From Candidatus Zhuqueibacterota bacterium 4484_87 (GTDB taxonomy: Bacteria; Zhuqueibacterota; Zhuqueibacteria; Thermofontimicrobiales; Thermofontimicrobiaceae): a stretch of 43,123 nt of DNA. The position numbers were made by a program, and so were the translations under genes. Every line of letters begins with the position of its first letter. Position 1 is the first letter of the stretch. The notes beneath the pieces were generated by a model, which was given only the letters and a program-made list of their open reading frames with translations, was not told the DNA's origin and ran no database searches. The DNA lies in assembly GCA_002085355.1 (NCBI GenBank), contig NATN01000001.1, positions 9,628-52,750 on the forward strand. The letters are read 5' to 3'. Shown one piece after another: positions 2,010-43,123 of the stretch.

Positions 2010-3147
<1,138 letters not shown>

Positions 3148-4844: not shown

Positions 4845-4874
4845 AACGGCGATACATCAAAATGCATCGCCGTT
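4845..4874 (-). terminator. Hairpin downstream of the dehydrogenase gene (possible intrinsic terminator or attenuator)
   Basis: aacggcgataca (4845-4856) pairs with tgcatcgccgtt (4863-4874), an 11/12 bp stem with a 6-nt loop. On the minus strand it is followed by GAATTTTT. Confidence 0.45.
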
Positions 4875-4907
4875 CAAATTTTAATCACTTGTAGTGTAAA
4901 AATAGTG

Positions 4908-10352: not shown

Positions 10353-11456
10353 ATGAAAATTGTAGCCAAAGTTCCGGGGAAATTAATTCTTCTCGGAGAA
10401 TATGCTGTTTTGGAAGGTGGTTCATCTCTGGTGATGACTGTTGATCGATTTGCCAGAGTGGAAATCTCGTTTTCTGATCAAATGACTTTTACATTGCAAG
10501 CGCCATCTATCGGCATACGCAATTTGCAATTTTCTCTGGATAAGAGAGGGAAAATTCAGTTCCTATCTGAACTCTCTCCGCGGGTGGAGAAAAAACTCAA
10601 ATTCTTCATTTCTATTTTTGAATTTGGGTTTCGGCTTTTGAAAAAAAGCGCCAAAACATTGCCTCATTCAGAGATTTTGTTGGACACAGACGCATTTTTT
10701 CATAAAAATCGTTCTATTAAATTGGGGCTTGGCTCAAGCGCTGCACTGACTGTCGCTTTAGTCGCAGGTCTAATCGCCGGGTCGGGGCAGTCAGTGATTG
10801 AAAATGATCAGCTTTTCCGCGCAGCAATGCAGGCACACCGTGCAGCACAAGGAAACGTCGGCAGCGGGATTGACATTGCTGCTTCGATTTTTGGCGGCAT
10901 TTTGTCTTATCAAATTGATCCTCACGCAGAGAATTTGAATCCGCAGATCAAACAGCTTAAGATGCCGTCAAATTTATTCATGGTGCCAGTCTGGGTCGGC
11001 AAATGCTCTTCCACCAGCCAGTTCGTGAAATTATTTTATGATTTTAAAAATAAAGACAAACGGAAGTTTGCCAAATTGGTTACCGAAATGAAATTTGTTG
11101 CAGATGCCGGGAAACAGGCTTTTCGCAAGCAGGATATTTCTGGCTTTTTGGATAGCATCAACCAATATAATTTATTGATGAAGAAATTGGGCGAGGATAT
11201 CAATGCGCCAATTGTATCCGAAGAACATTTGCGCATGGCTAATTTGGCTTCGGAAATAGGTGTTGCTTATAAGCCCTCCGGCGCTGGCGGCGGAGATATT
11301 GGTCTTTGTTTTGCAGACTCGGAAGAAAAATTTTCTGATTTAAAAAAGGCAAGCAAAGCAGCGGGTTTTGAACCGCTTGATCTCAATTTTGAATCTTCTG
11401 GAATTCACATAAAATCAATCAAGGTGGAAGCAAGTGAAAACGTCGCGTATTCCTGA
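10353..11456 (+). CDS. mvaK2: Phosphomevalonate kinase (GHMP family, ERG8/MvaK2 type)
   Basis: The 367-aa product has N-terminal PGKLILLGEYAVLEGG, the GHMP motif KLGLGSSAALTVALVAG and a C-terminal KPSGAGGGDIG. It sits between mvaD and the HMGR-mevalonate kinase gene. Confidence 0.72.
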   Translation: MKIVAKVPGKLILLGEYAVLEGGSSLVMTVDRFARVEISFSDQMTFTLQAPSIGIRNLQFSLDKRGKIQFLSELSPRVEKKLKFFISIFEFGFRLLKKSAKTLPHSEILLDTDAFFHKNRSIKLGLGSSAALTVALVAGLIAGSGQSVIENDQLFRAAMQAHRAAQGNVGSGIDIAASIFGGILSYQIDPHAENLNPQIKQLKMPSNLFMVPVWVGKCSSTSQFVKLFYDFKNKDKRKFAKLVTEMKFVADAGKQAFRKQDISGFLDSINQYNLLMKKLGEDINAPIVSEEHLRMANLASEIGVAYKPSGAGGGDIGLCFADSEEKFSDLKKASKAAGFEPLDLNFESSGIHIKSIKVEASENVAYS

Positions 11457-13671
11457 TTTTTATCAATATTCAGTGACCGAGCGTCTTAAATTACTGAAAA
11501 AATACGGAATTCTTGATGATGATGAAGTGCGGGCTCTGGTGAATGGCAAGTATTGCATGAAACCGGATGAAGCTGATAAGATGATAGAGAATGTTGTCGG
11601 TGTCTTCAGTCTGCCCATGGGCTTGGGACTGAATTTTCTCATTAATGGCAAAGAATATATCGTTCCAATGGTCGTTGAAGAGCCATCGATTGTTGCTGCC
11701 GTCAGTTCAGCGGCAAAATTGGTGCGACAGGCAGGCGGTTTTGTGAGTAAAAGCACAGAACCGATTTTGATAGGCCAGATCCAGGTTGTTGAAATGGATA
11801 GTCCGGTGAAAGCTAAACAGTCAATCCTGCGGCAGAAAGAAGAAATTCTCAACCTGGCGAATGATCTGCATCCAAATTTGGTCGCGCGGGGTGGCGGTGC
11901 CCGAGACATCGAAGTCATTTTGCACTCAGCAACTTCCAGATTCGGTGAAATGTTGGTCGTTCATCTGCTGGTGGACACGCGCGATGCCATGGGCGCAAAT
12001 CTCGTGAATAGCATGTGCGAAGGGGTGGCGTCGCTCATTGAAAAAATTACTCGCGGAAAGGTTTTTTTGCGTATCCTCTCCAATTTAGCGGATCGCTCTT
12101 TAGTGCGGGCAAAGGCGGTGATTCGTCCAAAATTGCTGGCAGGGAACGGCTATTCTGGTGAAGAGGTGCGAGAAGGAATTATTCTGGCGAATCATTTCGC
12201 TGCGGTTGATCCTTATCGCGCTGCTACGCACAACAAAGGCATCATGAATGGCATTGATCCGGTTGCCATTGCCACAGGGAATGATTGGCGGGCTATTGAA
12301 TCCGGAGCTCACGCTTACGCCGCACGCGGTACTTCGTACACTTCTCTTACAAATTGGTTCAAAGATGACAAGGGGAATTTAGTTGGCACGATTGAAATTC
12401 CCATCAAAGTCGGTACAGTTGGCGGTCCGCTTCAGTCAAACCCAGCAGTGCAAATTGCCCATCGGATTTTAGGAATTGAATCCGCAAATGAGTTGGCAGA
12501 AGTTATGGGGGCAGTCGGCTTGGCGCAAAATTTTGCTGCATTGCGCGCGCTGGTTACCGAAGGTATTCAGCGCGGCCACATGACATTGCACGCTCGCAGC
12601 GTGGTCAAGGCTGCCAGCGTTCCAGAATATTTATTTGATGAAGTGGTAAATCGCGTTGTTGAAAGCGGAAATATTAAAATTTGGAAGGCGAAAGAGATTT
12701 GCGCTGAATTGGAGGGGAAAATAGGCAATAAAGTGTCGCTCGAAAAAAAGCAGCCATTACCTTCTGGTTACGGAAAGGTGATTTTGCTCGGTGAGCATGC
12801 GGTAGTTTATGGTAGTCATGCAATTGCTGCGCCGATTCCGCTCGCTATTCAGGCAAGAGTAGAAGATGCTGATGAAGGAATTTCTCTCATCATCCCACAA
12901 TGGGGAGTTGAGGAAAAAATTCAGCAGGGGAAGGATTACAGATATTCCATCTATAGATCCCTTCAGATGTTGCTGGAAACTCTGGATCTAATGGGACGCA
13001 ACATGCAACTGTTTTTGTTTCCACACATTCCGCGCGCCATGGGACTTGGCGGCTCCGCAGCGCTGGCAGTGGCGATCATTCGCGCACTTTCAGAACATTT
13101 CAGATTAGATTTGTCAGATGAAGAAGTGAATAAATTAGCCTACGAATCGGAAAAGATTGTTCACGGTACACCTTCCGGAATTGACAATACGATGGCTACT
13201 TACGGGAAATTTATTTTGTACCAAAAAAACACGCCTCCGAAATTACAGGAAATCAAAGTTCAAAAACCTTTACCCTTAGTCATTGGAATGAGCGGCGTTG
13301 AAGGTCTGACCCTGAAAATGGTACGTCAGGTACGTCAGGGCTGGGAAAAGAACCGCGTTTTGTACGATCAGATTTTCGATCAGATCGATGAAATAACCCA
13401 ACAGGCAGTCGAGGCGATCCAGACGTACGATTTGGAAAAATTAGGCTATTTGATGAATATCAACCAAGGCTTGCTCAACGCCATTCAGGTTTCCACTTGG
13501 GAATTGGAAGAATTAGTAGAAATCGCCCGTAAAAACGGCGCCCTGGGCGCAAAACTCACCGGCGGTGGTGGCGGCGGTGCAATTATTGCTCTCTGTCCGG
13601 AAAATGCGGAGCAGGTTGTGGATGCCATGCAGCGAGCCGGGTATAAGGCGATTGTGACGGAGGTGGGGTAA
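11434..13671 (+). CDS. Bifunctional fusion: class II (NAD(P)H, 'degradative-type') HMG-CoA reductase (aa 1 to about 425) fused to mevalonate kinase (aa about 444-745)
   Basis: The N-terminal domain is collinear with Pseudomonas mevalonii-type HMGR (PMVVEEPSIVAA, DTRDAMGANLVN, AATHNKGIMNGIDPVAIATGNDWRA.E.GAHAYA, EGIQRGHMTLHAR). A linker follows (KIGNKVSLEKKQPLPS). The remainder is a complete GHMP mevalonate kinase (GYGKVILLGEHAVVYG, MGLGGSAALAVAIIRAL, GTPSGIDN, KLTGGGGGGAIIAL). The start is GTG with AAGGTGGA upstream, overlapping the PMK stop by 23 nt. Confidence 0.85.
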   Translation: MKTSRIPDFYQYSVTERLKLLKKYGILDDDEVRALVNGKYCMKPDEADKMIENVVGVFSLPMGLGLNFLINGKEYIVPMVVEEPSIVAAVSSAAKLVRQAGGFVSKSTEPILIGQIQVVEMDSPVKAKQSILRQKEEILNLANDLHPNLVARGGGARDIEVILHSATSRFGEMLVVHLLVDTRDAMGANLVNSMCEGVASLIEKITRGKVFLRILSNLADRSLVRAKAVIRPKLLAGNGYSGEEVREGIILANHFAAVDPYRAATHNKGIMNGIDPVAIATGNDWRAIESGAHAYAARGTSYTSLTNWFKDDKGNLVGTIEIPIKVGTVGGPLQSNPAVQIAHRILGIESANELAEVMGAVGLAQNFAALRALVTEGIQRGHMTLHARSVVKAASVPEYLFDEVVNRVVESGNIKIWKAKEICAELEGKIGNKVSLEKKQPLPSGYGKVILLGEHAVVYGSHAIAAPIPLAIQARVEDADEGISLIIPQWGVEEKIQQGKDYRYSIYRSLQMLLETLDLMGRNMQLFLFPHIPRAMGLGGSAALAVAIIRALSEHFRLDLSDEEVNKLAYESEKIVHGTPSGIDNTMATYGKFILYQKNTPPKLQEIKVQKPLPLVIGMSGVEGLTLKMVRQVRQGWEKNRVLYDQIFDQIDEITQQAVEAIQTYDLEKLGYLMNINQGLLNAIQVSTWELEELVEIARKNGALGAKLTGGGGGGAIIALCPENAEQVVDAMQRAGYKAIVTEVG

Positions 13672-13728: not shown

Positions 13729-14694
13729 ATGGAAGAAGTAAAGTTACAAAAAAGAATTATTGGTATCAGTGACATTTTTTTATTGATATCCATTTTTTTG
13801 ATAGCACTGCTAATTTCCTGCGATCAAACGACTGCCCCGGTGTCCAATGATGAATTTATCGTAAAAGAATTCAATTTAATAAATCTCAATTTTAGAGATT
13901 TACCTTATGTAAGCTACTCTCCTAAGTATTTAGACCTTAACTATAAAACAGATAGTGCTGGTGTGCAGATATTTTACTATAACGGTAAATATTATTATCA
14001 CCCCGTTCAATTAGCTCAATGGATTATCATGTTTGTTGATAGTTATTATCTTGTAAAGAATGAAGAACATTTAAAAAAAGCAAAGTTGTTTACAGATAAG
14101 CTCATAGAGATTTCAACATTTGAAAAAGAAGCATTATTTTTTCCATATAATTTTGATTTTCCGTTGCATGGAAAGAGGGATCAGATGATGTTAGCTCCAT
14201 GGTATTCCTGCATGGCTCAAGGTCAGATCTTGTCTGCATTTGTTCGTCTTTACCGAGTTACTTCGATCGAAGCCTATTTAGCATATGCTAGAAAAATTTT
14301 TAGGAGTTTTACTGTTTTAAAAAATAATAACGAAATTTGGGTGAGTATGGTTGATGAAAATAAATATTTATGGTTTGAAGAATATCCAATGAATGATGAG
14401 CCTAATCATACTTTAAATGGATTTATTTTTGCGATTTACGGTCTATATGAATATTATTGGGTAACCAAAAGCACAGAATGCAAAAAATATCTTTTTGCAG
14501 CACTTGCCACTATTGAAGAGTACATAGATGATTTTCGTAATCCAGGGGATATAAGCTATTATTGTTTAAAACATAAAGAAAAAAACCGCGAATATCACAA
14601 AGTGCATACTGAACAATTAGAGTTTTTGTACAAATTTACAAAATATGAATATTTTAAATACATGCATGATTTATTTTATCTTGATTACCATTAG
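13729..14694 (+). CDS. Predicted lipoprotein with a D-glucuronyl C5-epimerase-like C-terminal domain
   Basis: The 321-aa product has a signal peptide with lipobox LLISC. The segments YYHPVQLAQW, LAPWYSCMAQGQILSAFVRLY and HTLNGFIFAIYGLYEYY match, from memory, signature blocks of the glucuronyl C5-epimerase C-terminal family (PF06662-like). Confidence 0.55.
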   Translation: MEEVKLQKRIIGISDIFLLISIFLIALLISCDQTTAPVSNDEFIVKEFNLINLNFRDLPYVSYSPKYLDLNYKTDSAGVQIFYYNGKYYYHPVQLAQWIIMFVDSYYLVKNEEHLKKAKLFTDKLIEISTFEKEALFFPYNFDFPLHGKRDQMMLAPWYSCMAQGQILSAFVRLYRVTSIEAYLAYARKIFRSFTVLKNNNEIWVSMVDENKYLWFEEYPMNDEPNHTLNGFIFAIYGLYEYYWVTKSTECKKYLFAALATIEEYIDDFRNPGDISYYCLKHKEKNREYHKVHTEQLEFLYKFTKYEYFKYMHDLFYLDYH

Positions 14695-14775
14695 TTTTTA
14701 GCATCCAGGTCGATGGATCGATTTTGAAAATTTTAATGATATTGGTGCCTAATCCAGTTATCTGTAATGCTGAAA

Positions 14776-15897
14776 TTAATTGCTTTTTCTCAAAAAATAT
14801 GTTTTTTCATTTGGCTTAAGTGAAATCATTCCGTTTTGATTGTCAAATTTTAGTGTTTTTGGATTTGAGTATCCTTGAGAAAGTTCAATGTTCTTGTTTA
14901 TCCAATTTTTCGGCACGTCGAACAAAACGGTTAATTCTTGATCATAATAACTGTTGTCAAGACCATCGGATAAAGTAATTTGAATTTCTTCAATTTCATT
15001 TTCGCAATTAAATTTAGCCCTTGCAATAGGAGCCACTTGTTGTCTCTCTTTAATGTAAAGCGTAATGTTGTCCATCGTTGCGTTCCAAAAATCGCGCTGC
15101 GTAATTGCCTCTAAATCTGCAACAAATTCATCCCAATCGTAATATCCCCAACCGTCGGGATACCCAATATTGTGATAGGTTAAAATAATCCAGGCATGTT
15201 TTTCTATTGCGCCGTCGAGAATGGGCACTAAATCGGTATTATCATTTACGCACTCGGCGCAGTCGCGAAAGTCGTAAGCCTCCATCACCAGCGACGGTAA
15301 TTCATACCAGTTCATTGCATCTTCTTCTCCGTCGGGAAGGATGTACGGGTTTACGGTGTCAAACCGGGAATGAAAACGGCCATTTAGAAAACCAACATTT
15401 TTCAAGGCGCGGTGCGTTTCTTCCTCAAATCCAAATCCGCCGGGATAAGCAAATGACACAGGTTTGAGCCCATATTTCATCATTATGTCCCATGTGAGTT
15501 TAATGGAGGTATAAGCCGAATCATAAGTTAGTTCATCATGATTGACGTGCTCATAACCATGCCCGAAATATCCGAAACCCAATGGAATTAGATAATCCTC
15601 AAAATAATCACGCATGTATGGTCTGTCTTCATAGTTCTTAGCCACTATTTCAAAGTCCATTCTTAAGCCATATTCCACAACTTTGTCCGTTACTTTTTTT
15701 TCTCTGTCAATGTACGGAGATCCAGTATCATAATTTAGTGTAATCGCTGCCGTATGATTCTCATACCATTTGGCAACTGATACTTCAAATTTGGATTCGT
15801 AAGGGGCGGTAATATTTTCTTTATTATCGCAATGAAAAGCAAGTGTTACCATAATAATGATGATAAAGAGACAGGGAAATTTGTTTTTGAATTTCAT
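14776..15897 (-). CDS. Predicted lipoprotein, polysaccharide deacetylase (NodB/CE4)-like
   Basis: The 373-aa product has the lipobox LAFHC. CE4-like motif order is present: AITLNYDTG (in place of TFDDG), GHGYEHVNH (HxxxH), FAYPGG and ILTYHNI. The C-terminal part is a beta-rich domain. Confidence 0.5.
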   Translation of the reverse strand: MKFKNKFPCLFIIIIMVTLAFHCDNKENITAPYESKFEVSVAKWYENHTAAITLNYDTGSPYIDREKKVTDKVVEYGLRMDFEIVAKNYEDRPYMRDYFEDYLIPLGFGYFGHGYEHVNHDELTYDSAYTSIKLTWDIMMKYGLKPVSFAYPGGFGFEEETHRALKNVGFLNGRFHSRFDTVNPYILPDGEEDAMNWYELPSLVMEAYDFRDCAECVNDNTDLVPILDGAIEKHAWIILTYHNIGYPDGWGYYDWDEFVADLEAITQRDFWNATMDNITLYIKERQQVAPIARAKFNCENEIEEIQITLSDGLDNSYYDQELTVLFDVPKNWINKNIELSQGYSNPKTLKFDNQNGMISLKPNEKTYFLRKSN

Positions 15898-15940
15898 AGC
15901 AGTTCTCCGTAATTTTTTATCAAAACTTCAAGGCTTCCAA

Positions 15941-16957
15941 TTAATCCCTTGAAACAAAAATCCCCACCAAAAAGCCGATCCCCCAACTTAAATGGATAAC
16001 AGGAAAAAGTATGGGCAAAATGAAAAAGTAGCGGAATCCTTTTTCCATACTGATTTGGAATGACGAAATTAAAGATAGAACCAGGTAAAGTCCCCAGATA
16101 ATAGCTAATGGTATCAGAAAAAGTGTTTTAAAAAATCCGGCGATAAGTAGCAAAATAGTGACAAGCGCAAACGCTGGAGGGATCAAGTGCATCAATTTTA
16201 TCGCGTTGAAATGCTTTTTGATAACGTTAACGCGCAGAATGCCATAACGAAAAAGCTGAACAATGAGTCGCTTGATAGTTTTTCTGGGGTAATAGTAAGA
16301 AACAATTTTCGGAGAATAGAAAATTTTATAGCCCGCCTGCCTGATGCGCCAGTTCAATTCAGCGTCTTCGGAAATGAATAAATCTTCATCAAAATAGCCC
16401 ACTTCGTCGAACAGTTCTTTCCTGTATGCAGCATAAACAACAGTGTCAACGAATTTTTCTCTTTTCCCGTAACGATAAGGCGCGCTCGCCAGACCGAACG
16501 GATGCCCCATGGCATAACCAATGGCGCGTTGCATAAAATTTTCGCCGACATTGATCTGAGTGCCGCCTACGCATTTGACATTTTTCTCTTTCATCAGTCG
16601 AATGTTTTGGCTGACAAAATCTTCTTTGATCTTTGTATGCGCGCCCAGAATAATTACGACTTCACCAGCAGCATTTTTTATTCCTATGTTCAGAGAAGAG
16701 GGCGTTTTCCTTTTAGGGTTGGTGAGCAGACGGATGTTGGGATAATTTTCTGCCAGTGACAGCACCTTCTCCCGGCTGCCGTCACTGGAATTTCCGTCAA
16801 CTACAATGATTTCGATTTTTCTCGCCGGATAATTCTGCTTCTGAATAGATGCAATACAACGCTCGACATTCCCAGCTTCATTGTACATGGGAATCACGAT
16901 TGACACAAGCGGTGGATTGTCATCTGTTAGTGTTTTTTTTCTGTTAGTTCTATCCAT
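15941..16957 (-). CDS. Family 2 glycosyltransferase with a C-terminal membrane domain
   Basis: The 338-aa product shows VSIVIPMYNEAGNVERCI, VVDGNSSDGS and EDAELNWR. About 3-4 TM helices lie in the last 90 aa or so. Confidence 0.85.
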   Translation of the reverse strand: MDRTNRKKTLTDDNPPLVSIVIPMYNEAGNVERCIASIQKQNYPARKIEIIVVDGNSSDGSREKVLSLAENYPNIRLLTNPKRKTPSSLNIGIKNAAGEVVIILGAHTKIKEDFVSQNIRLMKEKNVKCVGGTQINVGENFMQRAIGYAMGHPFGLASAPYRYGKREKFVDTVVYAAYRKELFDEVGYFDEDLFISEDAELNWRIRQAGYKIFYSPKIVSYYYPRKTIKRLIVQLFRYGILRVNVIKKHFNAIKLMHLIPPAFALVTILLLIAGFFKTLFLIPLAIIWGLYLVLSLISSFQISMEKGFRYFFILPILFPVIHLSWGIGFLVGIFVSRD

Positions 16958-18086
16958 GGATAATTTTCTTCAATGTGGAAACTACGTATTCAATTTCTTC
17001 TTTTGTTAATTCTGGAAACATAGGCAAAGACAGGAGTTGTTCTGCGTGTTTTTCTGTCACCGGAAAATCTCCTTTTTTGTACCCAAGGTGTTTGTAAGCA
17101 TTTTGCAGATGCAACGGAATCGGATAATGGAGTCCGGTACTGATGCCTTTTTCTGCTAATTTCTTCTGCACATCGTCGCGATTTTTCACTTTAATCACGT
17201 AGAGATGATAAACTCCCTTTGACCATTCTGGTTCCTGTGGGAAAATCACACCCTCGATATCTTTGAGCAATTGGCCGTAAAGTGCTGCATTTTGACGTCT
17301 GTTTTCGATCCATTCGGGAAGATATTTTAGCTTTAATTTTAAAATACCCGCCTGAATGGCATGCATCCTGCCGTTGAACCCTTCAAAATCGTGATAATAC
17401 TTTTGACTTTGACCATGGTCGCGGTACATTTTTGCTTTTTGCGCGAGATCTGCATTATTCGTAACAATAGCGCCACCTTCACCACAGGAGCCTAAATTTT
17501 TTCCGGGGTAAAAGCTAAAAGCCCCTGCCAGTCCCATTGAGCCGGCTTTGTGGGATTCGCCATTTTTTTGATACAATGCTCCGTGTGCCTGACAGGCATC
17601 TTCAATGACGAAGAGTCCGTATTTTTGAGCGATTTCCAGAATCGGGTCCATGTCCGCCATTTGTCCGTACAGATGAACAGGCAGAATTCCTTTCAAGCGA
17701 TTCGATGATTTGACGCGTTTTTCCACTTCAGTCGCTAATTTTTCCACATCAATATTGTCAGTTCTCTCGTCAATGTCAACAAAAACAATTTTCCCGCCTG
17801 CCTGACTGATAGCTTCGGTGGTTGCGATAAATGTGTTTGGAGTAGTAATCACTTCATCGCCCGGTTGCAAACCCGCTGCCAGCAGAGCAAATCGCAATGC
17901 ATCCGTGCCGCTGTTCACGGCTATTGCGTGCGACGTACCGCAAAATCGTGCAAAATCTTCCTCAAAACCGTTCACATTCTTTCCACCAACAAAAGCTGTG
18001 TTGTCAATCGCTTCACTCACAATGTCCATAATCTGGTCTTTTAACATTTGATGCTGGGGTTTGAGATTGAGAAATGGAATTTGCAT
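16950..18086 (-). CDS. DegT/DnrJ/EryC1/StrS-family PLP-dependent nucleotide-sugar aminotransferase
   Basis: The 378-aa product shows VNSGTDALRFAL, VIEDACQAHGA and the PLP-lysine region SFYPGKNLG. It overlaps the GT2 start by 8 nt. Confidence 0.9.
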   Translation of the reverse strand: MQIPFLNLKPQHQMLKDQIMDIVSEAIDNTAFVGGKNVNGFEEDFARFCGTSHAIAVNSGTDALRFALLAAGLQPGDEVITTPNTFIATTEAISQAGGKIVFVDIDERTDNIDVEKLATEVEKRVKSSNRLKGILPVHLYGQMADMDPILEIAQKYGLFVIEDACQAHGALYQKNGESHKAGSMGLAGAFSFYPGKNLGSCGEGGAIVTNNADLAQKAKMYRDHGQSQKYYHDFEGFNGRMHAIQAGILKLKLKYLPEWIENRRQNAALYGQLLKDIEGVIFPQEPEWSKGVYHLYVIKVKNRDDVQKKLAEKGISTGLHYPIPLHLQNAYKHLGYKKGDFPVTEKHAEQLLSLPMFPELTKEEIEYVVSTLKKIIHG

Positions 18087-18254
18087 GGAGTTGTCTCCTT
18101 AATGTTAAATCAATTTTTCACCTTTGATTGTACAGTTTATATTTAAGTAATCCTTTTATCCAATTTGCTATTACAAATTATGCTTTTAAGAGAAACTTAA
18201 ATAATGATTCGTAAAAATATTATCAATCACTGGCAATTTATGTAGTACAGGGTT

Positions 18255-19259
18255 TCATGCAATCTCCACAACCTGGCTATTATTGCGCAATGATTTCTCT
18301 GCCGCTTCCAGCGCTTTGATGACGCGCAAGCCGCTGCGCCCGTCGCTGATGGGTTTTTTCCCGTTCTGGCAACATTCGATGAAATGGTTCATTTCCCGGC
18401 GCAGTGGCTCAAAATTTTGAATGTACGGACTGATGATGTCGCCGGAACGATAGCTGAGCTGGTATTCGCCAAATGTCTCGGGATCTTTATACTCAACGCC
18501 TTTGTCATAGATTTTCACTTTTTCAATATTTTCAGTATCATCATAGACAAGCATTTTCTTGTTGCCGACAATAGCTGTACGACGCAGCTTGCTCGGTGCA
18601 AGCCAACTCACCTGCATGTTGGCAATGCATCCGTCGGGAAATTCTATGTTGATGAACGCTACGTCCGGAATATTTTTCTGCACGCAATCTTTGCCCATGG
18701 CAGAGATGCGTTTTGGTTGTTGATTCAGCCAATAAAAGAGCATAGAAAAATCATGCGGTGCCAGATCCCAAATTACGCTCACGTCTTTTTGATGCAGACC
18801 CAAATTGACGCGCGACATGCTGATATAATAAACATCCCCCAATTCCTTGCTGTCAATCAACTCTTTTATTTTTAAAACCGGCGGACTATATTCAAACGTA
18901 TGGCCGACCATGAGAACACGGTTATTTTTTTCTGCGGTTTCTACCAACTTTTCGGCTTCTTGGCTATTTTGCGTCATTGGTTTTTCCACAAAAACATGTT
19001 TTCCTGCTTCTAATAGAGCATGGGCAATGGGGAAATGTAGAGATACTGGTGTCGCGACAATGGCAGCATCGATATCATCACGACGAAGTAGCTTTTGATA
19101 GTCGCTTTCAATTTCAACTGTTGGATATTTTAATTTGATACGCTGCAATTTTGTCTCATCAAGGTCACAAGCAATTAATTTCTCTGTCGTTTGACTTTCA
19201 TAAAGATTCCTGAGCAAATTTGGGCCCCAATAACCTAAACCAATGACAGCGATATTCAT
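18255..19259 (-). CDS. Gfo/Idh/MocA-family NAD-dependent oxidoreductase (nucleotide-sugar 3-dehydrogenase candidate, WbpB-like)
   Basis: The 334-aa product has the N-terminal Rossmann motif NIAVIGLGYWGPNL and EKPM. It has the typical C-terminal alpha/beta domain and lies adjacent to the DegT aminotransferase. Confidence 0.8.
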   Translation of the reverse strand: MNIAVIGLGYWGPNLLRNLYESQTTEKLIACDLDETKLQRIKLKYPTVEIESDYQKLLRRDDIDAAIVATPVSLHFPIAHALLEAGKHVFVEKPMTQNSQEAEKLVETAEKNNRVLMVGHTFEYSPPVLKIKELIDSKELGDVYYISMSRVNLGLHQKDVSVIWDLAPHDFSMLFYWLNQQPKRISAMGKDCVQKNIPDVAFINIEFPDGCIANMQVSWLAPSKLRRTAIVGNKKMLVYDDTENIEKVKIYDKGVEYKDPETFGEYQLSYRSGDIISPYIQNFEPLRREMNHFIECCQNGKKPISDGRSGLRVIKALEAAEKSLRNNSQVVEIA

Positions 19260-19301
19260 AAGATTCCCTTTCTATAGATTAATCATTTCACAAAATGAGT
19301 G

Positions 19302-20513
19302 TTATTTTATTTTAAAATTATCGTATAGATTTGTTAATTCCCTTGCAGATAGTGACCAATTATATTTTTTGATGACAGCTTGCTTTCCGTTTTTGCCATA
19401 TTCTTTTGATGCATTTTTGATTGTCAGTACAGCGCGGGCAAAATCATCCGGTGAATGGGAGCGAAAGATTTCCCCGCATTTTGTCTCACGGACGATTCTT
19501 GCCATAGCTTTTGCGTCGGACACAATGACCGGTTTTCCCAGCGCCATGTACTGAAAAAGTTTATGCGGCACGCCGTTATCAATCAAATCATTGGATGGCT
19601 GGGGAATGATGCAGATATTTGCCGCTGCAATATAGGAAGGAGTTTTTTCAAAATCAACCCAGCCTGTGAATTCCACAAACTTTGAAATCCCCAAATTTTC
19701 TATCAACTTTTCCAGCTCTTCCCTGATACCGCCATCGCCGACGAGGATCATTTTTAAATTCGGAATCTGCGGCGCTAAAATTTTTACCCCCTGAATCGCA
19801 ACTTCCAGTTCACGTTCCGGACTGAAATTGCCCACATAGGTCAGGACAAAATTCTCTTGATATTTTTCAACTATTTCTGCATCGATTTTTAATTGGATAT
19901 ATTTATCCGTTTGCACAGTATTACCAACGATGTGTATCTTTTGCGGATTGATGCCAATAGAAGTGAGCATTTCTTTATGCTCTTCAATGACAACGATAAT
20001 TTTTTCGCACAATTTCAGGCTCATTTTTTCTAATTTTCTTGCAAATGCGGGGTTGCGAAATAAGCCGGGCAGAAATCCTTTTCTGCCCCAGACCTCCAGA
20101 GCCGCGGGATAGTTTTCGTGCATGTCAAAAACAGCGGGTAATCTAAAAAGTTTTCCGACGAAAATCGCACCCAGAGCCAACGGAAGATCGTGGACGTGAA
20201 TGAAATCGATTTTGTGAAGGCGACAGGCTTTTGCAATGTAGAAGAGCCAGATGGGATTGAAAGAAAGCGGCACGCCAAAAAGTGATTGCAGATTTTTCCT
20301 GCCAAGTCGAAAGCGAGGCAAGCGGATGATGTGAAAATTCCCGTTGATTGTTTCGAATCGCGGCAGATTTTTTTTATTATTGCAAAGCAAATAAACCTGA
20401 TACCCGTTTTGAGTGAGCGCGTCGATTTCCTTTTCCAGCCTAATGTCAGGTGGGAAATCGCTCTGGAGGACCATTAAAATATTTGCTTTGTAGGTTAGGG
20501 CGTCCTGCTTCAT
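19302..20513 (-). CDS. Family 4 (GT-B, group 1) glycosyltransferase
   Basis: The 403-aa product has a C-terminal GT1 motif region, FTGWV...ICIIPQPS...PHKLFQYMALGKPVIVSD. Confidence 0.8.
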   Translation of the reverse strand: MKQDALTYKANILMVLQSDFPPDIRLEKEIDALTQNGYQVYLLCNNKKNLPRFETINGNFHIIRLPRFRLGRKNLQSLFGVPLSFNPIWLFYIAKACRLHKIDFIHVHDLPLALGAIFVGKLFRLPAVFDMHENYPAALEVWGRKGFLPGLFRNPAFARKLEKMSLKLCEKIIVVIEEHKEMLTSIGINPQKIHIVGNTVQTDKYIQLKIDAEIVEKYQENFVLTYVGNFSPERELEVAIQGVKILAPQIPNLKMILVGDGGIREELEKLIENLGISKFVEFTGWVDFEKTPSYIAAANICIIPQPSNDLIDNGVPHKLFQYMALGKPVIVSDAKAMARIVRETKCGEIFRSHSPDDFARAVLTIKNASKEYGKNGKQAVIKKYNWSLSARELTNLYDNFKIK

Positions 20514-20726
20514 AAAATTTTTTGATTAGCAACGGTTTATCTTTTATTGTGAAATGTACACAAATATAAGAAAAAAGTTTACAAATTCAAATAAAATTTT
20601 ACATTTGTTGGGAATGTTGTTGTTTAAATTTTAGCAAATCGGTTGTCCGCACTGATAAACTGAAACAGTTATTAGAAATTTGCTTGTTGCACTTGGAACG
20701 TGACCTCAGAGTTCCCCTGTTGAAAT

Positions 20727-20764
20727 AAAAAAAGGCCAGCCGAAATTCTCGACTGACCTTTTTA
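20727..20764 (-). terminator. Intrinsic terminator after the eight-gene ExbBD/TPR operon
   Basis: The sequence aaaaaaaGGcCAGcCGAaattcTCGaCTGaCCttttt forms a GC-containing stem with symmetric bulges. It is flanked by an A-run and a T-run, and on the minus strand it is followed by TTTTTTTATTT. It lies 40 nt downstream of the stop at 20802. Confidence 0.55.
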
Positions 20765-20801
20765 ATAACGTCCTTCCGACTTTCGTCAGAATTGGCGACG
20801 T

Positions 20802-22175
20802 TTAATTTAACTTTGCAAACTGGAACGGGAAAATAAAGGTCACTGAGCCCGAATCAATGGGTTTAAACTTGAGCCGCTTGACCAAAGCCAAAATTTCACG
20901 CTCCATAGGTGGATAGTTCAGCGTAGATTCGATCACACGAGCGGAAGCGACATTACCATTTGCCGCGATCGTGAATTCGATGGACACTTTCCCGCGCAAT
21001 GTAGGTTTAATTTTCAGGTACTTATTGTAAATATAAGTAATCTGACCCTGACGCGAATTGACTGTCTGAAACACGGATTCTTCGGAGCGATAGCCCACTG
21101 CGTCGGTTGTGCCTCTCGTTGCCCGTGGTTTTACCAGATCAACAACCGTTCTCTTTTTCAACTTAACAGAGGGCACTGTCTCTGTTGCATCCATAGAAGA
21201 AAGAATATCATCAATACCGCCGCTGCCACCAGTGCCAATTAATTGATCCAGCGGATCTTCTGCATCTTTGGTATTGCTCTTCCCGACTTTCAGATTAGTC
21301 CCGCCGCCAAGGATGTTGTTCAAGTCTGCGACCAGACCTTTGTCCACCAGTGCATCGATGATGGAACTTGATTTGCCGGCAGCTCCGCCATTTGCACCGC
21401 CGATCACTGCCAATAAGCCCCGTGACGCAACGCGATTTCCTCTGCCTGATGATCGACGACCGGAACTTTTGCTGCCGGATTTGTTCGATTTACCGGATTT
21501 TTTATCGTTGGATTTTTTGTCACTTTCCGATGTACCAGTATTGGCGGCGACGCTCGAGGTGGCTTCGTTCAAAATTTCGTCCGGAGTTTTGGGGATGAAA
21601 CGAGCCAGTCGTTCGGGAATTTTGTCAATGTTGATCTCTTTCTTTTGGATAATCTGATAATCCTTCAAAGCGTAAAGAATGAGCGCATTCACAATGAGCA
21701 AAATTGTAAAAATGGATTTGAATAACAAGTCAGAGCCCAAACTTTTGATTGTCGCCCGTGTCCAAGAAAAAACCGGTGATTTGACTGCGACCGATTGCTT
21801 GGGTTGAATATATTGAAAAGAGAATTCTATTTTTGTGTCGCCGACAGTGACAACGCCCTGTTTTTCCGGCGTGAGTTTAATGAGATAGGAATCCCCCTGG
21901 CGTGGCAAAATATCGTGACGGATCAAATCCGAGATGTTCAGCGAAGAACTATCCAGCGAGATTTCCCCTTTGATAAACGGCTTGACGTTCAAGGTATAAT
22001 AGCCGTTCTGTTGATCAAACAATACGTGTTGCTTGGGATATTCTGTGCCATACAAAATCAGATTATTGTTCCCGCTTTGCCCAACAGTGAATTGTTTCCC
22101 CTTGGACAAAACATATTGTTTGGAGTGATTGGAACGGCTGACGTTTAAAACGAGATATTTATTTTTTCCTGCCAT
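20802..22175 (-). CDS. Bitopic inner-membrane protein: cytoplasmic FHA-like N-domain, one TM, S/K/G/R-rich linker, AgmX/PglI-type TonB_C-like C-terminal domain (GltG/PglI-like)
   Basis: The 457-aa product has an FHA-like region at aa about 25-120 (FTVGQSGNNNLILYG..PKQHVLFDQQNGYYTLNV...VTVGDTKIEFSF). A TM helix lies at aa about 150-170 (LLFKSIFTILLIVNALILYAL). A low-complexity linker follows (TSESDKKSNDKKSGKSNKSGSKSSGRRSSGRGNR). The C-terminus RGKVSIEFTIAANGNVASARVIES......ILALVKRLKFKPI is typical of TonB_C/AgmX-PglI domains. Confidence 0.6.
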   Translation of the reverse strand: MAGKNKYLVLNVSRSNHSKQYVLSKGKQFTVGQSGNNNLILYGTEYPKQHVLFDQQNGYYTLNVKPFIKGEISLDSSSLNISDLIRHDILPRQGDSYLIKLTPEKQGVVTVGDTKIEFSFQYIQPKQSVAVKSPVFSWTRATIKSLGSDLLFKSIFTILLIVNALILYALKDYQIIQKKEINIDKIPERLARFIPKTPDEILNEATSSVAANTGTSESDKKSNDKKSGKSNKSGSKSSGRRSSGRGNRVASRGLLAVIGGANGGAAGKSSSIIDALVDKGLVADLNNILGGGTNLKVGKSNTKDAEDPLDQLIGTGGSGGIDDILSSMDATETVPSVKLKKRTVVDLVKPRATRGTTDAVGYRSEESVFQTVNSRQGQITYIYNKYLKIKPTLRGKVSIEFTIAANGNVASARVIESTLNYPPMEREILALVKRLKFKPIDSGSVTFIFPFQFAKLN

Positions 22176-33487: not shown

Positions 33488-36400
33488 TTATTTTTTCGCC
33501 AACCGTTTCTCGCGAAATTTTTCTGAGCGATTCTCCATGATGATGTAAATTACCGGAACGACAAATAGCGTGAGAAAAGTTGCCACGAATAAACCGCCGA
33601 TTACAGACCTTGCCAGCGGGGCCCAGTTTTCTCCGCTCTCGCCCAAACCTAATGCTAACGGAACCATTGCCAGTATTGTCGTCAACGCAGTCATCAGCAC
33701 TGGTCTCATTCTCGTTTCTCCGCCTTCCTGGACTGCTTCCATCAAACTTTTTCCTTTGGCGCGGAGCTGATTCATGTAATCGACGAGCACAATTCCGTTG
33801 TTCACCACGATACCGACTAACATAATAATTCCGATCAGTGCCATCACCGTGAGCGTAGTTCCGGTGAGGAACAAGAAAAGTGCCACGCCGATGAGGGACA
33901 TGGGAATGGTGAACAAAATGATGAACGGATCCAACAGAGACTCGAACTGCGAAGCCATAACCATATAAGTGAGCAAAATAGCAACCAACATGGCAATGCC
34001 CAAATACATGAACGATTCCTGCTGTTCTTCAGCCATACCACTGATTTCGAGCCGATAATCATTGGGGATAACTACTTTTTTCATGGCTTTTTGCACATCG
34101 AGAGTAACGCTGCGCAAATCTCTGCCCGAAACCATCATGGAAACTTTAACCACGCGTTCCTGGTCTTCGCGAGTGATTTCTGTCGGAGCTTTGCTGGTTA
34201 CTACGCGCGCTACGGATCGAAGCGGCACTCGCGCACCTGTCGGCGATACGATCAAAATATTTTCCAGGTCTGCCTTGGATTTGCGATATTTTTTATCCAG
34301 TTGGACACGAATGTCGTATTCTTCACCGCCTTCGCGAAAAGTGGAAGCAACTGTACCCAGAATATTTGAGCTTACTGTCTGCGAAACCGCTGCTGCTGAA
34401 ATTCCCAGATCAGCCAGACGATTTCTGTCCAGTTCTATTCTCAGCTCTGGCATGGCTTCTTCAAGACTGATTTTCACTTGTTCGGTACCGGGAATCTGTT
34501 TTACCAGATCTTGAATTTGTTCGGCTAATTCTTTTGATTTTGTCAAATCGTGCCCGAAAATTTCCACGACGATGTCGCCTTCGCCGAACATCTGACTGAT
34601 TCCCTGTTCCTGATAGCGAATTTCTGCGCCGGGGATTTCGGCAAATTTCTTTTTAAGAGCCGCATCAATCTCTTTTTGAGAGCGATGACGCTGGCTTTTG
34701 CGGACTAATTTTACATTGACTTCGCCTGCGTTTGAGGCGCCACCACCGAAGAGAGCCGTGAGACCTTCGCCCTGACCAAATTGTACGTGAATATTTTCTG
34801 CTTCCGGCACTTCTTTTTTGACAACGTCAGCAATTTTCATCATTGTTTTTTGCATTTCATCGAGACTGGTTCCGGGGGCAGTTTTTACCTGATAGACGAT
34901 AAATCCCTGATCGGAATGGGGGAAAAAATCACCGCCACGGGTTGCCAGAATCGCAATGGAAGTTGCAAAAAGCAAAGTGACCAAAATGAGCACAGTTTTT
35001 CTGTGGTTGATTGACCATCTCAGAGCTCTGCTGTATTGATTTCTTAATCCGATCAGAAAGGAAGTAATTCCTTTTTTTATGCGGCTGATAAACCCTTTGG
35101 ATGATCTATCTCGTGATTTAATTTTTTCACTAATGTCCAGAAATCGCGATGCCAGAAGCGGCACTAATGTGAGTGCGACAAATAACGAGGACAAAAGAGA
35201 AAAACAGATGGTAACAACCATGTCGTTGAACAACTCGCCGGCAATGCCAGGGACAAAAAGCACGGGCACAAAAACTGCTAATGTTGTCAATGTAGAGGCA
35301 GTGATTGCCATAGAGACTTCCGAGCCTCCCTTGTCAGCAGCATCTTCCATAGAATCACCCAATTGCCGCCGCCGGAATATATTTTCCAATACAACAATGG
35401 AGTTATCCACCAACATTCCCACTGCCAGTGCCAAACCAGCCATGGAAATCATATTCAGCGTCAAACCGGCCTGATCCATGACTGCAAAAGTGACCAACAT
35501 GGAAACCGGAATGGAAATGGCAACAATGAGCGAACTGCGGAAATTTAGCAAGAAAAATAACAGCACAAGAAACGCCAAACCGATAGCTTGCAATGCGGTG
35601 CTTCCCAGATTTGACATGGATCGCTGAATGAAGGTCGCCTGATCCCAGAAGTTGATAATCTCCACACCTCTGGGAATGGCTTGCTGAATATCATCCAATT
35701 GGCTTTTTATGCGCTTGACGACTTGCACAGTGTTCGCGTCCGATTGCTTGCTGACCATGAGCAGAACGCTTGGGTTACCGTCAATGTATTCGCGTTGTCT
35801 CTGTTCTTTGAAACCATCCACTACGCGTGCCACATCGCGAATTCTAACAGGTGTCCCCTGAATTGTGGCAATGGTTGTGTTTTTGATTTCATCTAAATTC
35901 TGATATTCCCCCATGGTTTGAACAGTGTATTCCTGCTCTTTATTTTCAATCCAGCCGCTGGGAATCTGCATGTTGTTCATTCGCAGTGCGTTCACAAGAT
36001 AATCAATGGAAAAATGATGCGCCTGCAAGCGATGGGGATCTGCGAGAATTTTAATTTCGCGGGATAAGCCTCCGGCAGTGAAAGCATTTGCCACGCCCGG
36101 AATACGTTCAATTCGCGGCTCGATCTCCCGTTCTGAAATTCTGCGCAATTCTGCAGTGCCGTATTGGCTTGATTGAACAGCCATGTACATGATTGGCTGC
36201 ATGGAAGGATCAAAAGCGAATACTACCGGATCTCTGATGTCATCAGGCAAATAGTCACGGATGAAGTCGATGTTTTTCCGCGTATCAATTTCCGCCTGAT
36301 CCATATCAGTACCCCAGTCAAATTCAAGCAACACCAGGGAAAGTCCCTGTTTGGAAGTGGAGCTGACTTTTTTAACGTTCTCCACAGAAGATACAATTTC

Positions 36401-36604
36401 TTCGAGAGGACGAGTTACAGAATTTTCAATATCGTAGGGATTGACTCCTGTGTATTGGGTGATGATCGCGATCACCGGAAAAGTTAAATCCGGGAACAGG
36501 TCTATTTTCAATCTTGCCAGAGAAAAGAGACCAAACCCGATCACAATCAAATATATCATGAAAAACGTGATGCCGCGTTTGATGGCTAATGTCGTGATTT
36601 TCAT
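33488..36604 (-). CDS. RND-family efflux transporter, inner-membrane permease (AcrB/HAE-type)
   Basis: The 1038-aa product has 12-TM RND topology with two large periplasmic loops. Typical N-terminus is present (AIKRGITFFMIYLIVIGFGLFS...LFPD..FPVI.I.T.Y.G), as is the TM4 region GLALAVGMLVDNSIVVLENI. Confidence 0.95.
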   Translation of the reverse strand: MKITTLAIKRGITFFMIYLIVIGFGLFSLARLKIDLFPDLTFPVIAIITQYTGVNPYDIENSVTRPLEEIVSSVENVKKVSSTSKQGLSLVLLEFDWGTDMDQAEIDTRKNIDFIRDYLPDDIRDPVVFAFDPSMQPIMYMAVQSSQYGTAELRRISEREIEPRIERIPGVANAFTAGGLSREIKILADPHRLQAHHFSIDYLVNALRMNNMQIPSGWIENKEQEYTVQTMGEYQNLDEIKNTTIATIQGTPVRIRDVARVVDGFKEQRQREYIDGNPSVLLMVSKQSDANTVQVVKRIKSQLDDIQQAIPRGVEIINFWDQATFIQRSMSNLGSTALQAIGLAFLVLLFFLLNFRSSLIVAISIPVSMLVTFAVMDQAGLTLNMISMAGLALAVGMLVDNSIVVLENIFRRRQLGDSMEDAADKGGSEVSMAITASTLTTLAVFVPVLFVPGIAGELFNDMVVTICFSLLSSLFVALTLVPLLASRFLDISEKIKSRDRSSKGFISRIKKGITSFLIGLRNQYSRALRWSINHRKTVLILVTLLFATSIAILATRGGDFFPHSDQGFIVYQVKTAPGTSLDEMQKTMMKIADVVKKEVPEAENIHVQFGQGEGLTALFGGGASNAGEVNVKLVRKSQRHRSQKEIDAALKKKFAEIPGAEIRYQEQGISQMFGEGDIVVEIFGHDLTKSKELAEQIQDLVKQIPGTEQVKISLEEAMPELRIELDRNRLADLGISAAAVSQTVSSNILGTVASTFREGGEEYDIRVQLDKKYRKSKADLENILIVSPTGARVPLRSVARVVTSKAPTEITREDQERVVKVSMMVSGRDLRSVTLDVQKAMKKVVIPNDYRLEISGMAEEQQESFMYLGIAMLVAILLTYMVMASQFESLLDPFIILFTIPMSLIGVALFLFLTGTTLTVMALIGIIMLVGIVVNNGIVLVDYMNQLRAKGKSLMEAVQEGGETRMRPVLMTALTTILAMVPLALGLGESGENWAPLARSVIGGLFVATFLTLFVVPVIYIIMENRSEKFREKRLAKK

Positions 36605-36605
36605 C

Positions 36606-39038
36606 TCAATTGTCTCCTTCGTTCAAAACCCTTACTCTTGAACCATCTTTTAAACTTTGCTGTCCAACGACTACGATTTGTTCTCCTTCTTCAAGCCCGG
36701 ATTTTACGACGGAAACCGTGCCATTGGTGTAGCTAATTTCTAATTTGCGCAAGTGAGCCACGCTATCCTGCACAACAAACACGTGGGAATTTACCACCGT
36801 CATATCTTCGCCATTGACGCGCTGCAATTCAGTTTTTTCAATCACTGCAAATTTAGGAATCGCGATGACATCTTTCAGCGTCTGAATGGAAATCTGCACT
36901 TCAGCGAACATGCCGGGTTTCAACTTTTTATCTTTGTTGTCCACGAGAATCTCAATCTTTCCCATGCGCGTCAGCGGGTCGAGAACCGGGCTAATTTTGA
37001 TAATTTTTCCCCAAAAAGTCTCGTCCGGATAGCTGCGAACTTTGACGACGCCGGATTGCCCGATTTTCAATTGGCCAAAATCTTGCTCAGGTGCTTTCAC
37101 AATCACCTTCACTCGATTCATCTGAACAACGGTTACAATGGGCATGGGACCCGTTGCCATGTCGCCCGCTTCATAATTGCGCGTACCAATAATGCCGGAA
37201 ATGGGCGCTGTAATGATTGCGTCTTTTAATTGACTTTCTGCCTGTATGAGCGCCGCTTCTGCCTGTTCAACCAAAGCTTTTGTCGCTTCAAATTGAGTTT
37301 TTGCTGCGTCGAATTGTTGTTCGCTGATTGCATTTTCCGCTTTTAATCTTTTGGCGCGCTCAAATTCAGCTTTCATATTAGCGAATTGCGCCCGTGCGCT
37401 TGCCAGACCAGCTTTTGCCTGAACTACGGCCTGTTCAATTTTTGTCGCTTCAATTTTCGCAATCACATCGCCTTTTCTTACATAGTCGCCTTCATCAACT
37501 TCAAATTTGACGATGCGATCAGGAATCTTGGAGAACACTTTCACTTCTATTTCCGCCTGAATGTCGCCGGTGTAAGTAACTTCTCTGGAAACATCTTTGC
37601 GAACTACCGGCATTGTTTGCACCGGAATGATCAGCGCATCTTCGTTCGATTTTGCTTTTTTGCCACAGCCTGTCAGTAAAAGTGAGTTCACATAATTCAT
37701 TCTCGCCTGCGTCAGAGCTAATTGAGAATTTAGTACGTCCAATTGTGTGTTTATTCCTTCTTTGTACATCATATTCGCCAAACGCAAAGCTTCTTTTGCC
37801 AGATCCACGGTCTTGACCGCAGACTGATATTTTTCCCTGGCTTCCTGCAGTTTATTGTACGCCACTTCAACTTCTGCAGCGATGCCGTCGCTGGCTTGTT
37901 TTTCAGTGTCCAACATGATGTGATAATCCAGCCGAGATTTCTGATATTGCGCTGCTGATTGGAAACCGTGGAACAGAGGAATTTGCAAACTGATCGCAGA
38001 TGTGAAACCTTTGCTGGCATTTTTATGGCTGAATTTGTAATTATTTCTCATGTCCATGAATGAATAGTCAGTTTGAAAAAATATTTTTGGGAGAAAATTA
38101 CTTCGGGCAATGGCAACTGTTTTACGCATTATCCGCTTTTGATCCTGGATCGCCAGAAACATCGGTCTTTTTTCCATGGCTAATTTCTGCAACTCTTCCA
38201 GGGGCATGTTGCAAAATTCATCTTCCACATATTTGAACTCGCCTTCCACATCGATGACAGCATCTCTTTCCAGACCGAGAATTGTCTTGAGCATGGTCAG
38301 CGCAGATCGATAGTTGTTTCTGGCAGCGATCACCGCTGGTCTCAAATTCGCGACATCCACCTCGGCGCGCATTTTGTCAAAACCGGATGCAGCGCCTGAT
38401 TCATATTTTTTTCTGACATTTTCGAAATTCGCTTCTGCCTGAGCCAATGCTTCTTCCTGAACTTTGACAAGTTCTTTCGTCAACAAGCATCCGTAAAATG
38501 CATTGGTTGTGTTGTAAATCAAGTCCTGTTTTTTCTCCATGAGATTCTTTTTTGCCGCCGATTTCGCAGCATTGGCAATTTGAATTCCGGAAATTCCAGC
38601 GCCTCCCAAGAATAATGGTTGTGTCAATGTGGCGCCATAACGGAGCGTATTTTCCAACCCAAAAGACATGCGCACATAATCAGGCATGTCTTCCAGCCCC
38701 GGAATGTACGGGCCCAGCGGCGCTAACATCGGTTTCAAAAAGTTGGGTATGGTTTGTTCCTGGATGCTCCAGGCATGTTGGAAATTGATCGAGCCGTCCA
38801 ATTTAGGCAAAATGTTCGACCAAGCTTCCACAACACCGGTTTTAGCTTTTGCGACTTCTTTTTCCGCCATTTGAATTGCCGGATTTTTCTGCAATGCCAG
38901 TTCCACGCTTCGGTCAAGAGTGAGCGTCACCTTTTTTTGCGAGAACCCAGTTAACGGCGAAAATAACAGCAGAAAAAATAAAATCAACTGTAATGTCCGC
39001 AGAATTTCTGTTGTTAAATTTTTCATATTTTCCCTCAC
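36606..39038 (-). CDS. Single ORF fusing a TolC-like outer-membrane factor (aa 1 to about 452) to an RND periplasmic adaptor/membrane-fusion protein (aa about 458-810)
   Basis: The N-terminal half is OMF-like: signal peptide, LTLDRSVELALQKNPAIQMAEKEV, and two repeat halves ending DVLNSQLALTQARMNYVNS. The sequence continues directly into LLLTGCGKKAKSNED (the tail of a lipoprotein signal peptide plus lipobox Cys, codon 37665-37667). An MFP follows (lipoyl-like VKFEVDEGDYVRKGDVIAKIE, coiled-coil hairpin, ITAPISGIIG, beta-barrel domains). No stop codon separates the two halves. Confidence 0.8.
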   Translation of the reverse strand: MRENMKNLTTEILRTLQLILFFLLLFSPLTGFSQKKVTLTLDRSVELALQKNPAIQMAEKEVAKAKTGVVEAWSNILPKLDGSINFQHAWSIQEQTIPNFLKPMLAPLGPYIPGLEDMPDYVRMSFGLENTLRYGATLTQPLFLGGAGISGIQIANAAKSAAKKNLMEKKQDLIYNTTNAFYGCLLTKELVKVQEEALAQAEANFENVRKKYESGAASGFDKMRAEVDVANLRPAVIAARNNYRSALTMLKTILGLERDAVIDVEGEFKYVEDEFCNMPLEELQKLAMEKRPMFLAIQDQKRIMRKTVAIARSNFLPKIFFQTDYSFMDMRNNYKFSHKNASKGFTSAISLQIPLFHGFQSAAQYQKSRLDYHIMLDTEKQASDGIAAEVEVAYNKLQEAREKYQSAVKTVDLAKEALRLANMMYKEGINTQLDVLNSQLALTQARMNYVNSLLLTGCGKKAKSNEDALIIPVQTMPVVRKDVSREVTYTGDIQAEIEVKVFSKIPDRIVKFEVDEGDYVRKGDVIAKIEATKIEQAVVQAKAGLASARAQFANMKAEFERAKRLKAENAISEQQFDAAKTQFEATKALVEQAEAALIQAESQLKDAIITAPISGIIGTRNYEAGDMATGPMPIVTVVQMNRVKVIVKAPEQDFGQLKIGQSGVVKVRSYPDETFWGKIIKISPVLDPLTRMGKIEILVDNKDKKLKPGMFAEVQISIQTLKDVIAIPKFAVIEKTELQRVNGEDMTVVNSHVFVVQDSVAHLRKLEISYTNGTVSVVKSGLEEGEQIVVVGQQSLKDGSRVRVLNEGDN

Positions 39039-39640
39039 TCATTCAATCCTTTGAATAAAAGTTCAACAATCTCTTCGGCTAATTTATCAGTTAAAATTTT
39101 TCGTTTCGATTTGATTTGCAAGCTAATGAAATGGCCTGTAACAGCGACAAACATTTCTGCTGCCAAATCAGGATTTGCCCCTGCGCCAAATTCACCGGAT
39201 GAAATGCCTTCCTTAAAAATGTTCAGCAATAATTTTTTGTGTGCGCGCACATGTTTTTTGAAATCTTCGACAAATGGCGTATGTTCTGATGTTAAAAAAA
39301 TCATCAGGAAAAATTTGGAAAATTCGGAATGTTCATAACTGATGCGAAATTGCTGCTGCATTATTTTCACTAATTTCATTTTTGCTGAAATATCTGTCTC
39401 GGCAATTTTTCGGGAAAATGCTACGCCGTATTCCATCCCGGTTTCCAATAATTCTCGGAAAATTCCCTCCTTGCTGCCAAAATAATAATAAATTGTCGGC
39501 TTTGACACATTCGATAGTTCAGAAATTTCGCGCATGGAAACGCCATTGTAGCCTTTCTCCGCGAACAGACGAGCTGCCGTCAAAAATATCTGAAGCTTGG
39601 TATCGTTTTCGCCTTTTAATTTTTTCTGAAAATTTTCCAT
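39035..39640 (-). CDS. TetR/AcrR-family transcriptional regulator
   Basis: The 201-aa product has an N-terminal HTH (IFLTAARLFAEKGYNGVSMREISELSNVSKPTIYYYFGSKEGIF). It is the first gene of the efflux operon, with a 4-nt overlap with the next ORF. Confidence 0.9.
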   Translation of the reverse strand: MENFQKKLKGENDTKLQIFLTAARLFAEKGYNGVSMREISELSNVSKPTIYYYFGSKEGIFRELLETGMEYGVAFSRKIAETDISAKMKLVKIMQQQFRISYEHSEFSKFFLMIFLTSEHTPFVEDFKKHVRAHKKLLLNIFKEGISSGEFGAGANPDLAAEMFVAVTGHFISLQIKSKRKILTDKLAEEIVELLFKGLNE

Positions 39641-42990: not shown

Positions 42991-43123
42991 TTTTTATTTC
43001 CTAATTTTTTTGAGCCCAAAAGCCTTTTGAAACCACAAAGGTCTCAAAGTAGGCGCAAAGGGCACAAAGAATATCTCATTGAAAATAAATAAGTTAAACT
43101 CATAGGAATTCTTCGTGATTTTC

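Follow-up and report, generated by a model that had tools for sequence, protein, structure and literature searches.

The canonical tripartite RND operon encodes a TetR regulator, an outer-membrane factor (OMF) of the TolC/OprM kind, a lipoprotein adaptor of the AcrA/MexA type (PAP/MFP) and an RND transporter, and the operon considered here agrees with it in gene order, domains and sequence. The difference lies between the two middle genes, where the assembly of the window (the whole 43,123-nt stretch of DNA that was analysed, which belongs to a MAG of Candidatus Zhuqueibacterota bacterium 4484_87) lacks 135 nt, so that the OMF and the adaptor appear as one merged ORF. Fusions of pump components have been made in the laboratory: Du et al. 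reportedly engineered AcrB-AcrA fusions in 2014 for structure work. Such constructs resemble the merged ORF in placing two components of a tripartite pump on one polypeptide, but they differ in being designed, in having complete partners connected by long, flexible linkers, and in attaching the adaptor to the inner-membrane component. A natural fusion between an OMF and an adaptor appears neither in the accessible part of a 2021 Chem Rev review (PMC8277102) nor in the database searches made for this work.

The second precedent concerns the assemblies themselves. Chen et al. (2020; Genome Res 30:315; PMC7111523) described how unsupported local assembly errors in MAGs spread wrong protein sequences into databases. 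The present case is alike in that a consensus sequence disagrees with independent assemblies, in that apparently wrong proteins are public, and in that the MAG is fragmented and of low coverage. However, the defining test of those authors is the lack of perfect read support, whereas the present case rests on the comparison of assemblies; furthermore, the putative error here always takes the form of missing sequence, 114-224 nt long and not marked by Ns, apart from a ccmF site that holds 24 N. The MAG consists of 274 contigs and is 73% complete, and the SPAdes-style contig names in the independent assemblies give a coverage of 5-8x.

ORF calling and translation return the merged gene as a single ORF of 810 aa, which fills positions 36606-39038 of the window on the minus strand when it is read from the GTG at 39038. 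The alternative start, an ATG at 39026, gives a protein of 806 aa, and this shorter form corresponds to the database entry P0122, present in NCBI, nr and IMG. Pfam recognizes two OEP domains in the ORF (1.2e-56), followed by HlyD_D23 and HlyD_3. The gene is closely packed between its neighbours (Table 1): the stop codon of the TetR gene overlaps the start of the merged ORF, and a TetR gene of 201 aa is likewise found upstream in L014, L015, L016 and the same-genus genome G001; at the other end, the ATG of the RND transporter overlaps the stop codon of the merged ORF in the sequence ATGA at 36606-36603. The transporter matches positions 2-1020 of the 1021 in the ACR_tran profile and is 99.9% identical to its counterparts in L014 and L031.

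Table 1. Features of the RND operon and the sites in the MAG at which sequence is missing
Feature	Position	Strand	Evidence or comparison
TetR-family regulator, operon gene 1	39035..39640	(-)	Pfam TetR_N 4.2e-18
TolC-family OMF portion, ORF residues 1-453	37680..39038	(-)	Pfam OEP
Junction CTT/TTA CTG ACA GGC TGT (L/LLTGC)	37665..37682	(-)	Alignment to near-identical assemblies
RND-type periplasmic adaptor (MFP/PAP) portion	36606..37679	(-)	Pfam HlyD_D23 3.2e-30, HlyD_3
RND inner-membrane transporter, 1038 aa, intact	33488..36604	(-)	Pfam ACR_tran 1.9e-268
serS gap (gene 2010-3147)	2504..2505	(-)	131 nt missing vs L026 7139-7269; frameshift
ccmF gap, just upstream of window position 1	contig C15 9604-9627		24 N vs 152 nt in L026 (9774-9925)
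Gap in nitroreductase gene	contig C133 ~24699		114 nt missing, in frame, vs ERZ23491052
Gap in Wzz/GNVR/ParA (Wzz/tyrosine-kinase-type) polysaccharide co-polymerase gene	contig C8 ~18104-18105		224 nt missing, frameshift, vs ERZ23491052

Three independent assemblies contain nearly the same DNA, namely ENA ERZ2433807 (NODE_1756, 36 kb), ENA ERZ23491060 and a Logan contig of SRR6301444, and all three hold two ordinary genes at this place, a 472-aa OMF and a 374-aa lipoprotein adaptor separated by a 12-nt spacer. Over 2.5-21 kb, their DNA matches the window with an identity of 99.8-99.9%, the 135-nt gap being the sole large difference, and the divergence of about 0.1% indicates that they may represent a sister strain, not the population from which the MAG was built. 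The intact OMF (P0123, 472 aa) is identical over its residues 1-449 to the OMF part of the window and then continues with YEYQISRYHLRKVVGLLKGILDK, while the intact adaptor (P0124, 374 aa) is identical to the adaptor part of the window from residue 23 onwards (GKKAKSNEDA...), with MARKIFSIFLISALAISLLTSC upstream of the shared part.

The alignment of the two versions defines the junction to the nucleotide. The OMF part of the window ends with the residues ...ARMNYVNSL, the last of which is encoded by CTT (37682-37680), and the next five codons (37679-37665) spell the lipobox LLTGC; the motif LLTGC-GKK spans 37679-37659, and the junction in the window reads CTT followed by TTACTGACAGG. The net loss of 135 nt, which is in frame, is made up of 23 OMF codons, the stop codon, the 12-nt spacer and the 17 signal-peptide codons for MARKIFSIFLISALAIS. 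As the two genes are in frame with each other and a loss of 135 nt leaves that frame unshifted, the result is one continuous ORF. The exchange itself is slightly larger, as 137 nt of L014 (7349-7485) are swapped in the window for 2 nt that align to neither flank, and any direct repeat at the breakpoints is at most 1 nt long. The missing segment was also sought on the other contigs of the MAG as an alternative assembly path, with nothing more than chance matches of 14-24 nt, and the MAG contains a single copy of the junction region.

The sequence beside the junction has a peculiarity of its own, since it differs from that of the near-identical assemblies by four transitions within 12 nt (TTA CTG ACA GGC in the window vs CTG CTA ACA AGC). 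As a consequence, the lipobox reads LLTGC in the window and LLTSC in those assemblies, and LLTGC is also the form found in the same-genus G001. These 12 nt look like a real allelic variant and not like random error; because LLTGC is a valid lipobox, as in G001, some real strain variation at the junction is suggested, and such heterogeneity may have broken the assembly graph at this point. A separate observation concerns the JGI contig L013 (3300033141), whose 476-aa OMF (P0002) diverges markedly from that of the window in its N-terminal third: it is 99% identical to residues 300-454 of the 810-aa ORF, the overall DNA identity is 86% (window 37680-39038), and the pattern suggests an allele of mosaic or recombinant origin among strains that occur together.

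Members of the TolC/OprM family have two OEP repeats (PF02321), each of which supplies beta-strands and long helices of the channel. In the OMF half of the merged protein, the first OEP repeat is complete (profile positions 1-187 of 187), while the second is matched over positions 1-171 of 187 in the window vs 1-187 in the intact P0123, and thus the C-terminus of the OMF is truly truncated according to Pfam. A phmmer alignment places the break at about mature residue 390 (R390) of E. coli TolC, which in the TolC structure lies in the middle of helix H8. In that structure, reportedly determined by Koronakis et al. in 2000, H8 is said to be one of the twelve helices of the periplasmic barrel; the OMF part of the window is accordingly predicted to lack half of its last barrel helix, that is, a part of the alpha-barrel wall. 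At its N-terminus the OMF carries an export signal, MKNLTTEILRTLQLILFFLLLFSPLTGFSQ, with a charged n-region and a hydrophobic core as judged by eye. The core of the adaptor, with its barrel-sandwich, lipoyl, hairpin and beta-barrel parts, is complete from the lipobox onwards (HlyD_D23 profile positions 2-214 of 214; HlyD_3 5.1e-16), and of its own lipoprotein signal peptide LLTGC alone is left, the 17 preceding residues being gone. An internal Met (37700-37698) would yield MNYVNSLLLTGC, a peptide that lacks a charged n-region and whose h-region is too short.

These results agree with much of what the preliminary description of the locus had read from its letters. It had proposed that the OMF breaks off within its last helix and runs into a lipobox, on which the ORF, the Pfam search and the alignment to P0123 concur, and that about 100-150 nt had been deleted in frame with the loss of some 20 OMF residues, close to the 135 nt and 23 residues measured. 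The extent that it gave for the deletion, from the 3' end of the OMF gene across the spacer to the first codons of the adaptor, matches the intact assemblies; the profile check of the OMF C-terminus that it suggested returned a truncated end and not a complete one, and its view that the peptide from the internal ATG is poorly suited to export the adaptor is shared here, as judged from the sequence of that peptide.

If the merged ORF were a natural gene architecture, it would be expected in relatives, and it was not found in them. Direct ORF calling at orthologous loci, in organisms that share the genus or, at the most distant, only the class, gave separate genes for the OMF and the lipoprotein adaptor at 16 of 16 loci, and the fused orthologues that the preliminary description proposed to look for are hence absent from this set. 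The OMFs of these relatives are 463-501 aa long and share a tail of the form ...YEYQ.(S/A)RYQLRK..G.LKG.L, and their adaptors, of 368-397 aa, have their own lipoprotein signal peptide. In G001, from the same genus, the 476-aa OMF ends with ...NYVNSLYEYQISRYQLRKVIGLLKGILDK and is followed, after a spacer of again 12 nt, by a 374-aa adaptor that starts with MAKKIFSIFLISGLAIALLTGCGKK. No fused protein occurs among the 120 best protein matches to residues 300-620, all of which are OMFs only, of 447-483 aa, and the fusion is present in 0 of the 3 near-identical assemblies. The exact strings across the OMF/adaptor junction and across the serS junction had no match in JGI metagenome contigs and GTDB genome contigs, a scan that possibly did not reach the records of the window's own genome. 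With no recurrence in assemblies, orthologous loci or best matches, the ORF does not fall into a natural, conserved family of OMF-adaptor fusions.

Open frames of 840-980 aa across both genes were also noted in seven relatives (G001, G011, G015, G018, G019, G020 and G026) and were rejected as fusions, each of them containing a stop codon and two genes. Such long open frames are listed despite the stop between two genes in the same frame, and they are not evidence of fusion.

The comparison with near-identical assemblies was extended to about 68 kb, with positions 14098-22118 of the window left out, and it revealed five gaps of 114, 131, 135, 224 and ~128 nt, or about one per 14 kb; those on contigs C133 and C8 were covered by one independent assembly each. 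The MAG has the shorter sequence at five of the five gaps, and the only other indels are two of 1 nt. At serS there is no microhomology at the breakpoint, and an intact SerRS of 422 aa is encoded by the near-identical contigs L026 and L027. The ccmF gene of L026 encodes 655 aa; the ccmF ORF of the window lies at 3-1412 (-), and the run of N beside the latter may be another gap of ~128 nt or may simply stand for withheld bases. Microhomology- or repeat-mediated deletion was considered as a source of the gaps and ruled out, as the breakpoints share only 0-2 nt.

Substitutions provide a further view of the junctions. Their rate relative to the near-identical contigs is ~0.07%, and up to 200 nt from the junctions SNPs are about 7 times as dense as elsewhere, with 10 in 2 kb vs 44 in 61 kb (Poisson 3e-6), a count that omits the four transitions at the OMF/adaptor junction. 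A true end of a contig is available for comparison, namely that of C15, where 7 differences from L031 fall in the last 90 nt (window ~43030-43122). Because SNPs pile up at the junctions as they do at this true end, the junctions have the appearance of contig ends set directly against each other.

The OMF::adaptor ORF is thus best explained, with a probability of about 0.86, as an error of local assembly in a MAG that is fragmented and of low coverage, the consensus being in disagreement with independent assemblies and the same type of error recurring. Two contig ends flanking ~135 unassembled nt would have been joined directly, and the unassembled stretch would have comprised the 3' end of the OMF gene, the spacer and the signal-peptide codons of the adaptor; the exact assembler or scaffolder step behind this join is one that we infer. 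Losses of 110-230 nt only, at about one per 14 kb, with frameshifts that include the essential serS and with an identity to intact strains that is otherwise 99.9%, are not the pattern of spontaneous mutation, and they would deprive the cell of seryl-tRNA synthetase. Several points count against an artefact: as a rule, de Bruijn assemblers do not join sequences without some read or scaffolding evidence, the 12 nt beside the junction resemble a real allele with a valid lipobox, and the near-identical assemblies may come from a sister strain. The preliminary description had warned of an artefact and had tied the junction to the serS lesion, and both points were well placed, given the intact genes in near-identical assemblies and the gaps of 114-224 nt that recur in the MAG.

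An alternative explanation is that the 135-nt deletion is real in a strain or subpopulation, where it would have inactivated the pump and left a recent, in-frame, pseudogene-like fusion without function. The deposited sequence does read in this way, the LLTGC patch at the junction, shared with G001, suggests a real divergent allele, and the loss of an accessory efflux pump would be tolerable. However, this explanation is challenged by the similar gaps that the same MAG has in serS, in ccmF and in the Wzz-type gene, and because serS is both essential and frameshifted, a viable cell could hardly carry this set of gaps. Moreover, the gaps all go in one direction and are accompanied by almost no small indels, unlike a mutational spectrum, the SNPs are concentrated around the junctions in the way seen at a contig end, and the junction is present in no other assembly searched. 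A real deletion is for these reasons unlikely; if it did exist, its product would most likely be non-functional, because half of H8 is gone and the adaptor has lost its own signal for export and lipidation.

In the geometry of AcrAB-TolC, the N-terminus of the adaptor belongs next to the inner membrane. That the ORF encodes a real, functional 88-kDa covalent OMF-adaptor, exported by the OMF signal peptide and forming a pump of 3:3 stoichiometry with an unlipidated adaptor, a covalent chain which the preliminary description had put forward, is unsupported and very improbable: although no stop codon interrupts the reading frame, the downstream gene for the RND transporter is complete and the periplasmic location of both OMF termini means that the topology is not outright forbidden, the fusion recurs at none of the 16 orthologous loci and in none of the 120 best database matches, its OMF is cut in mid H8 and lacks the upper half of this last barrel helix, the adaptor N-terminus would probably lie ~100 Å or more from the OMF break with a linker of only ~15-20 residues between them, the 99.9% identity to strains with two genes gives no sign of adaptation to a fusion, and all of the evidence for an artefact applies here too.

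An assembly error, the reading preferred here, would have consequences for both the organism and the databases. The organism itself most likely has an ordinary operon of TetR, OMF, lipoprotein adaptor and RND transporter, and since such a four-gene operon is almost certain, the fusion would have no standing as a biological finding. As NCBI, nr and IMG already list the 806-aa protein, the error would have been propagated, and the fused entry could pass for a new domain architecture. Any gene of this MAG that is split, truncated or fused, including serS, needs to be compared with sister assemblies before conclusions are drawn from it; near-identical independent contigs offer a cheap test that separates real fusions from spurious ones.

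A control for this test is provided by another fusion in the window, that of a class II HMG-CoA reductase to a mevalonate kinase (11434-13671, (+), 745 aa). This gene has equal length in the independent contigs L028 (ERZ23491052) and L029 (ERZ2433807), and it is, unlike the OMF fusion, a real gene architecture in this lineage; because it is reproduced elsewhere, the sister-assembly test is able to confirm real fusions. A short distance downstream, at ~14053, L029 parts from the window and carries over its positions 4678-5975 an integrase of the rve family (IS element), together with a gene for a peptidase S8. The gene at this point has 123 aa in L029 vs 321 aa in the window (ORF 13729-14694, (+)), which could reflect the insertion of an IS at strain level or a further difference between the assemblies. 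As for the contig ends of this MAG, they are variant-rich; placed on the near-identical L014, those of C15 and C32 have ~158 nt in common, and these neighbouring contigs could be merged.
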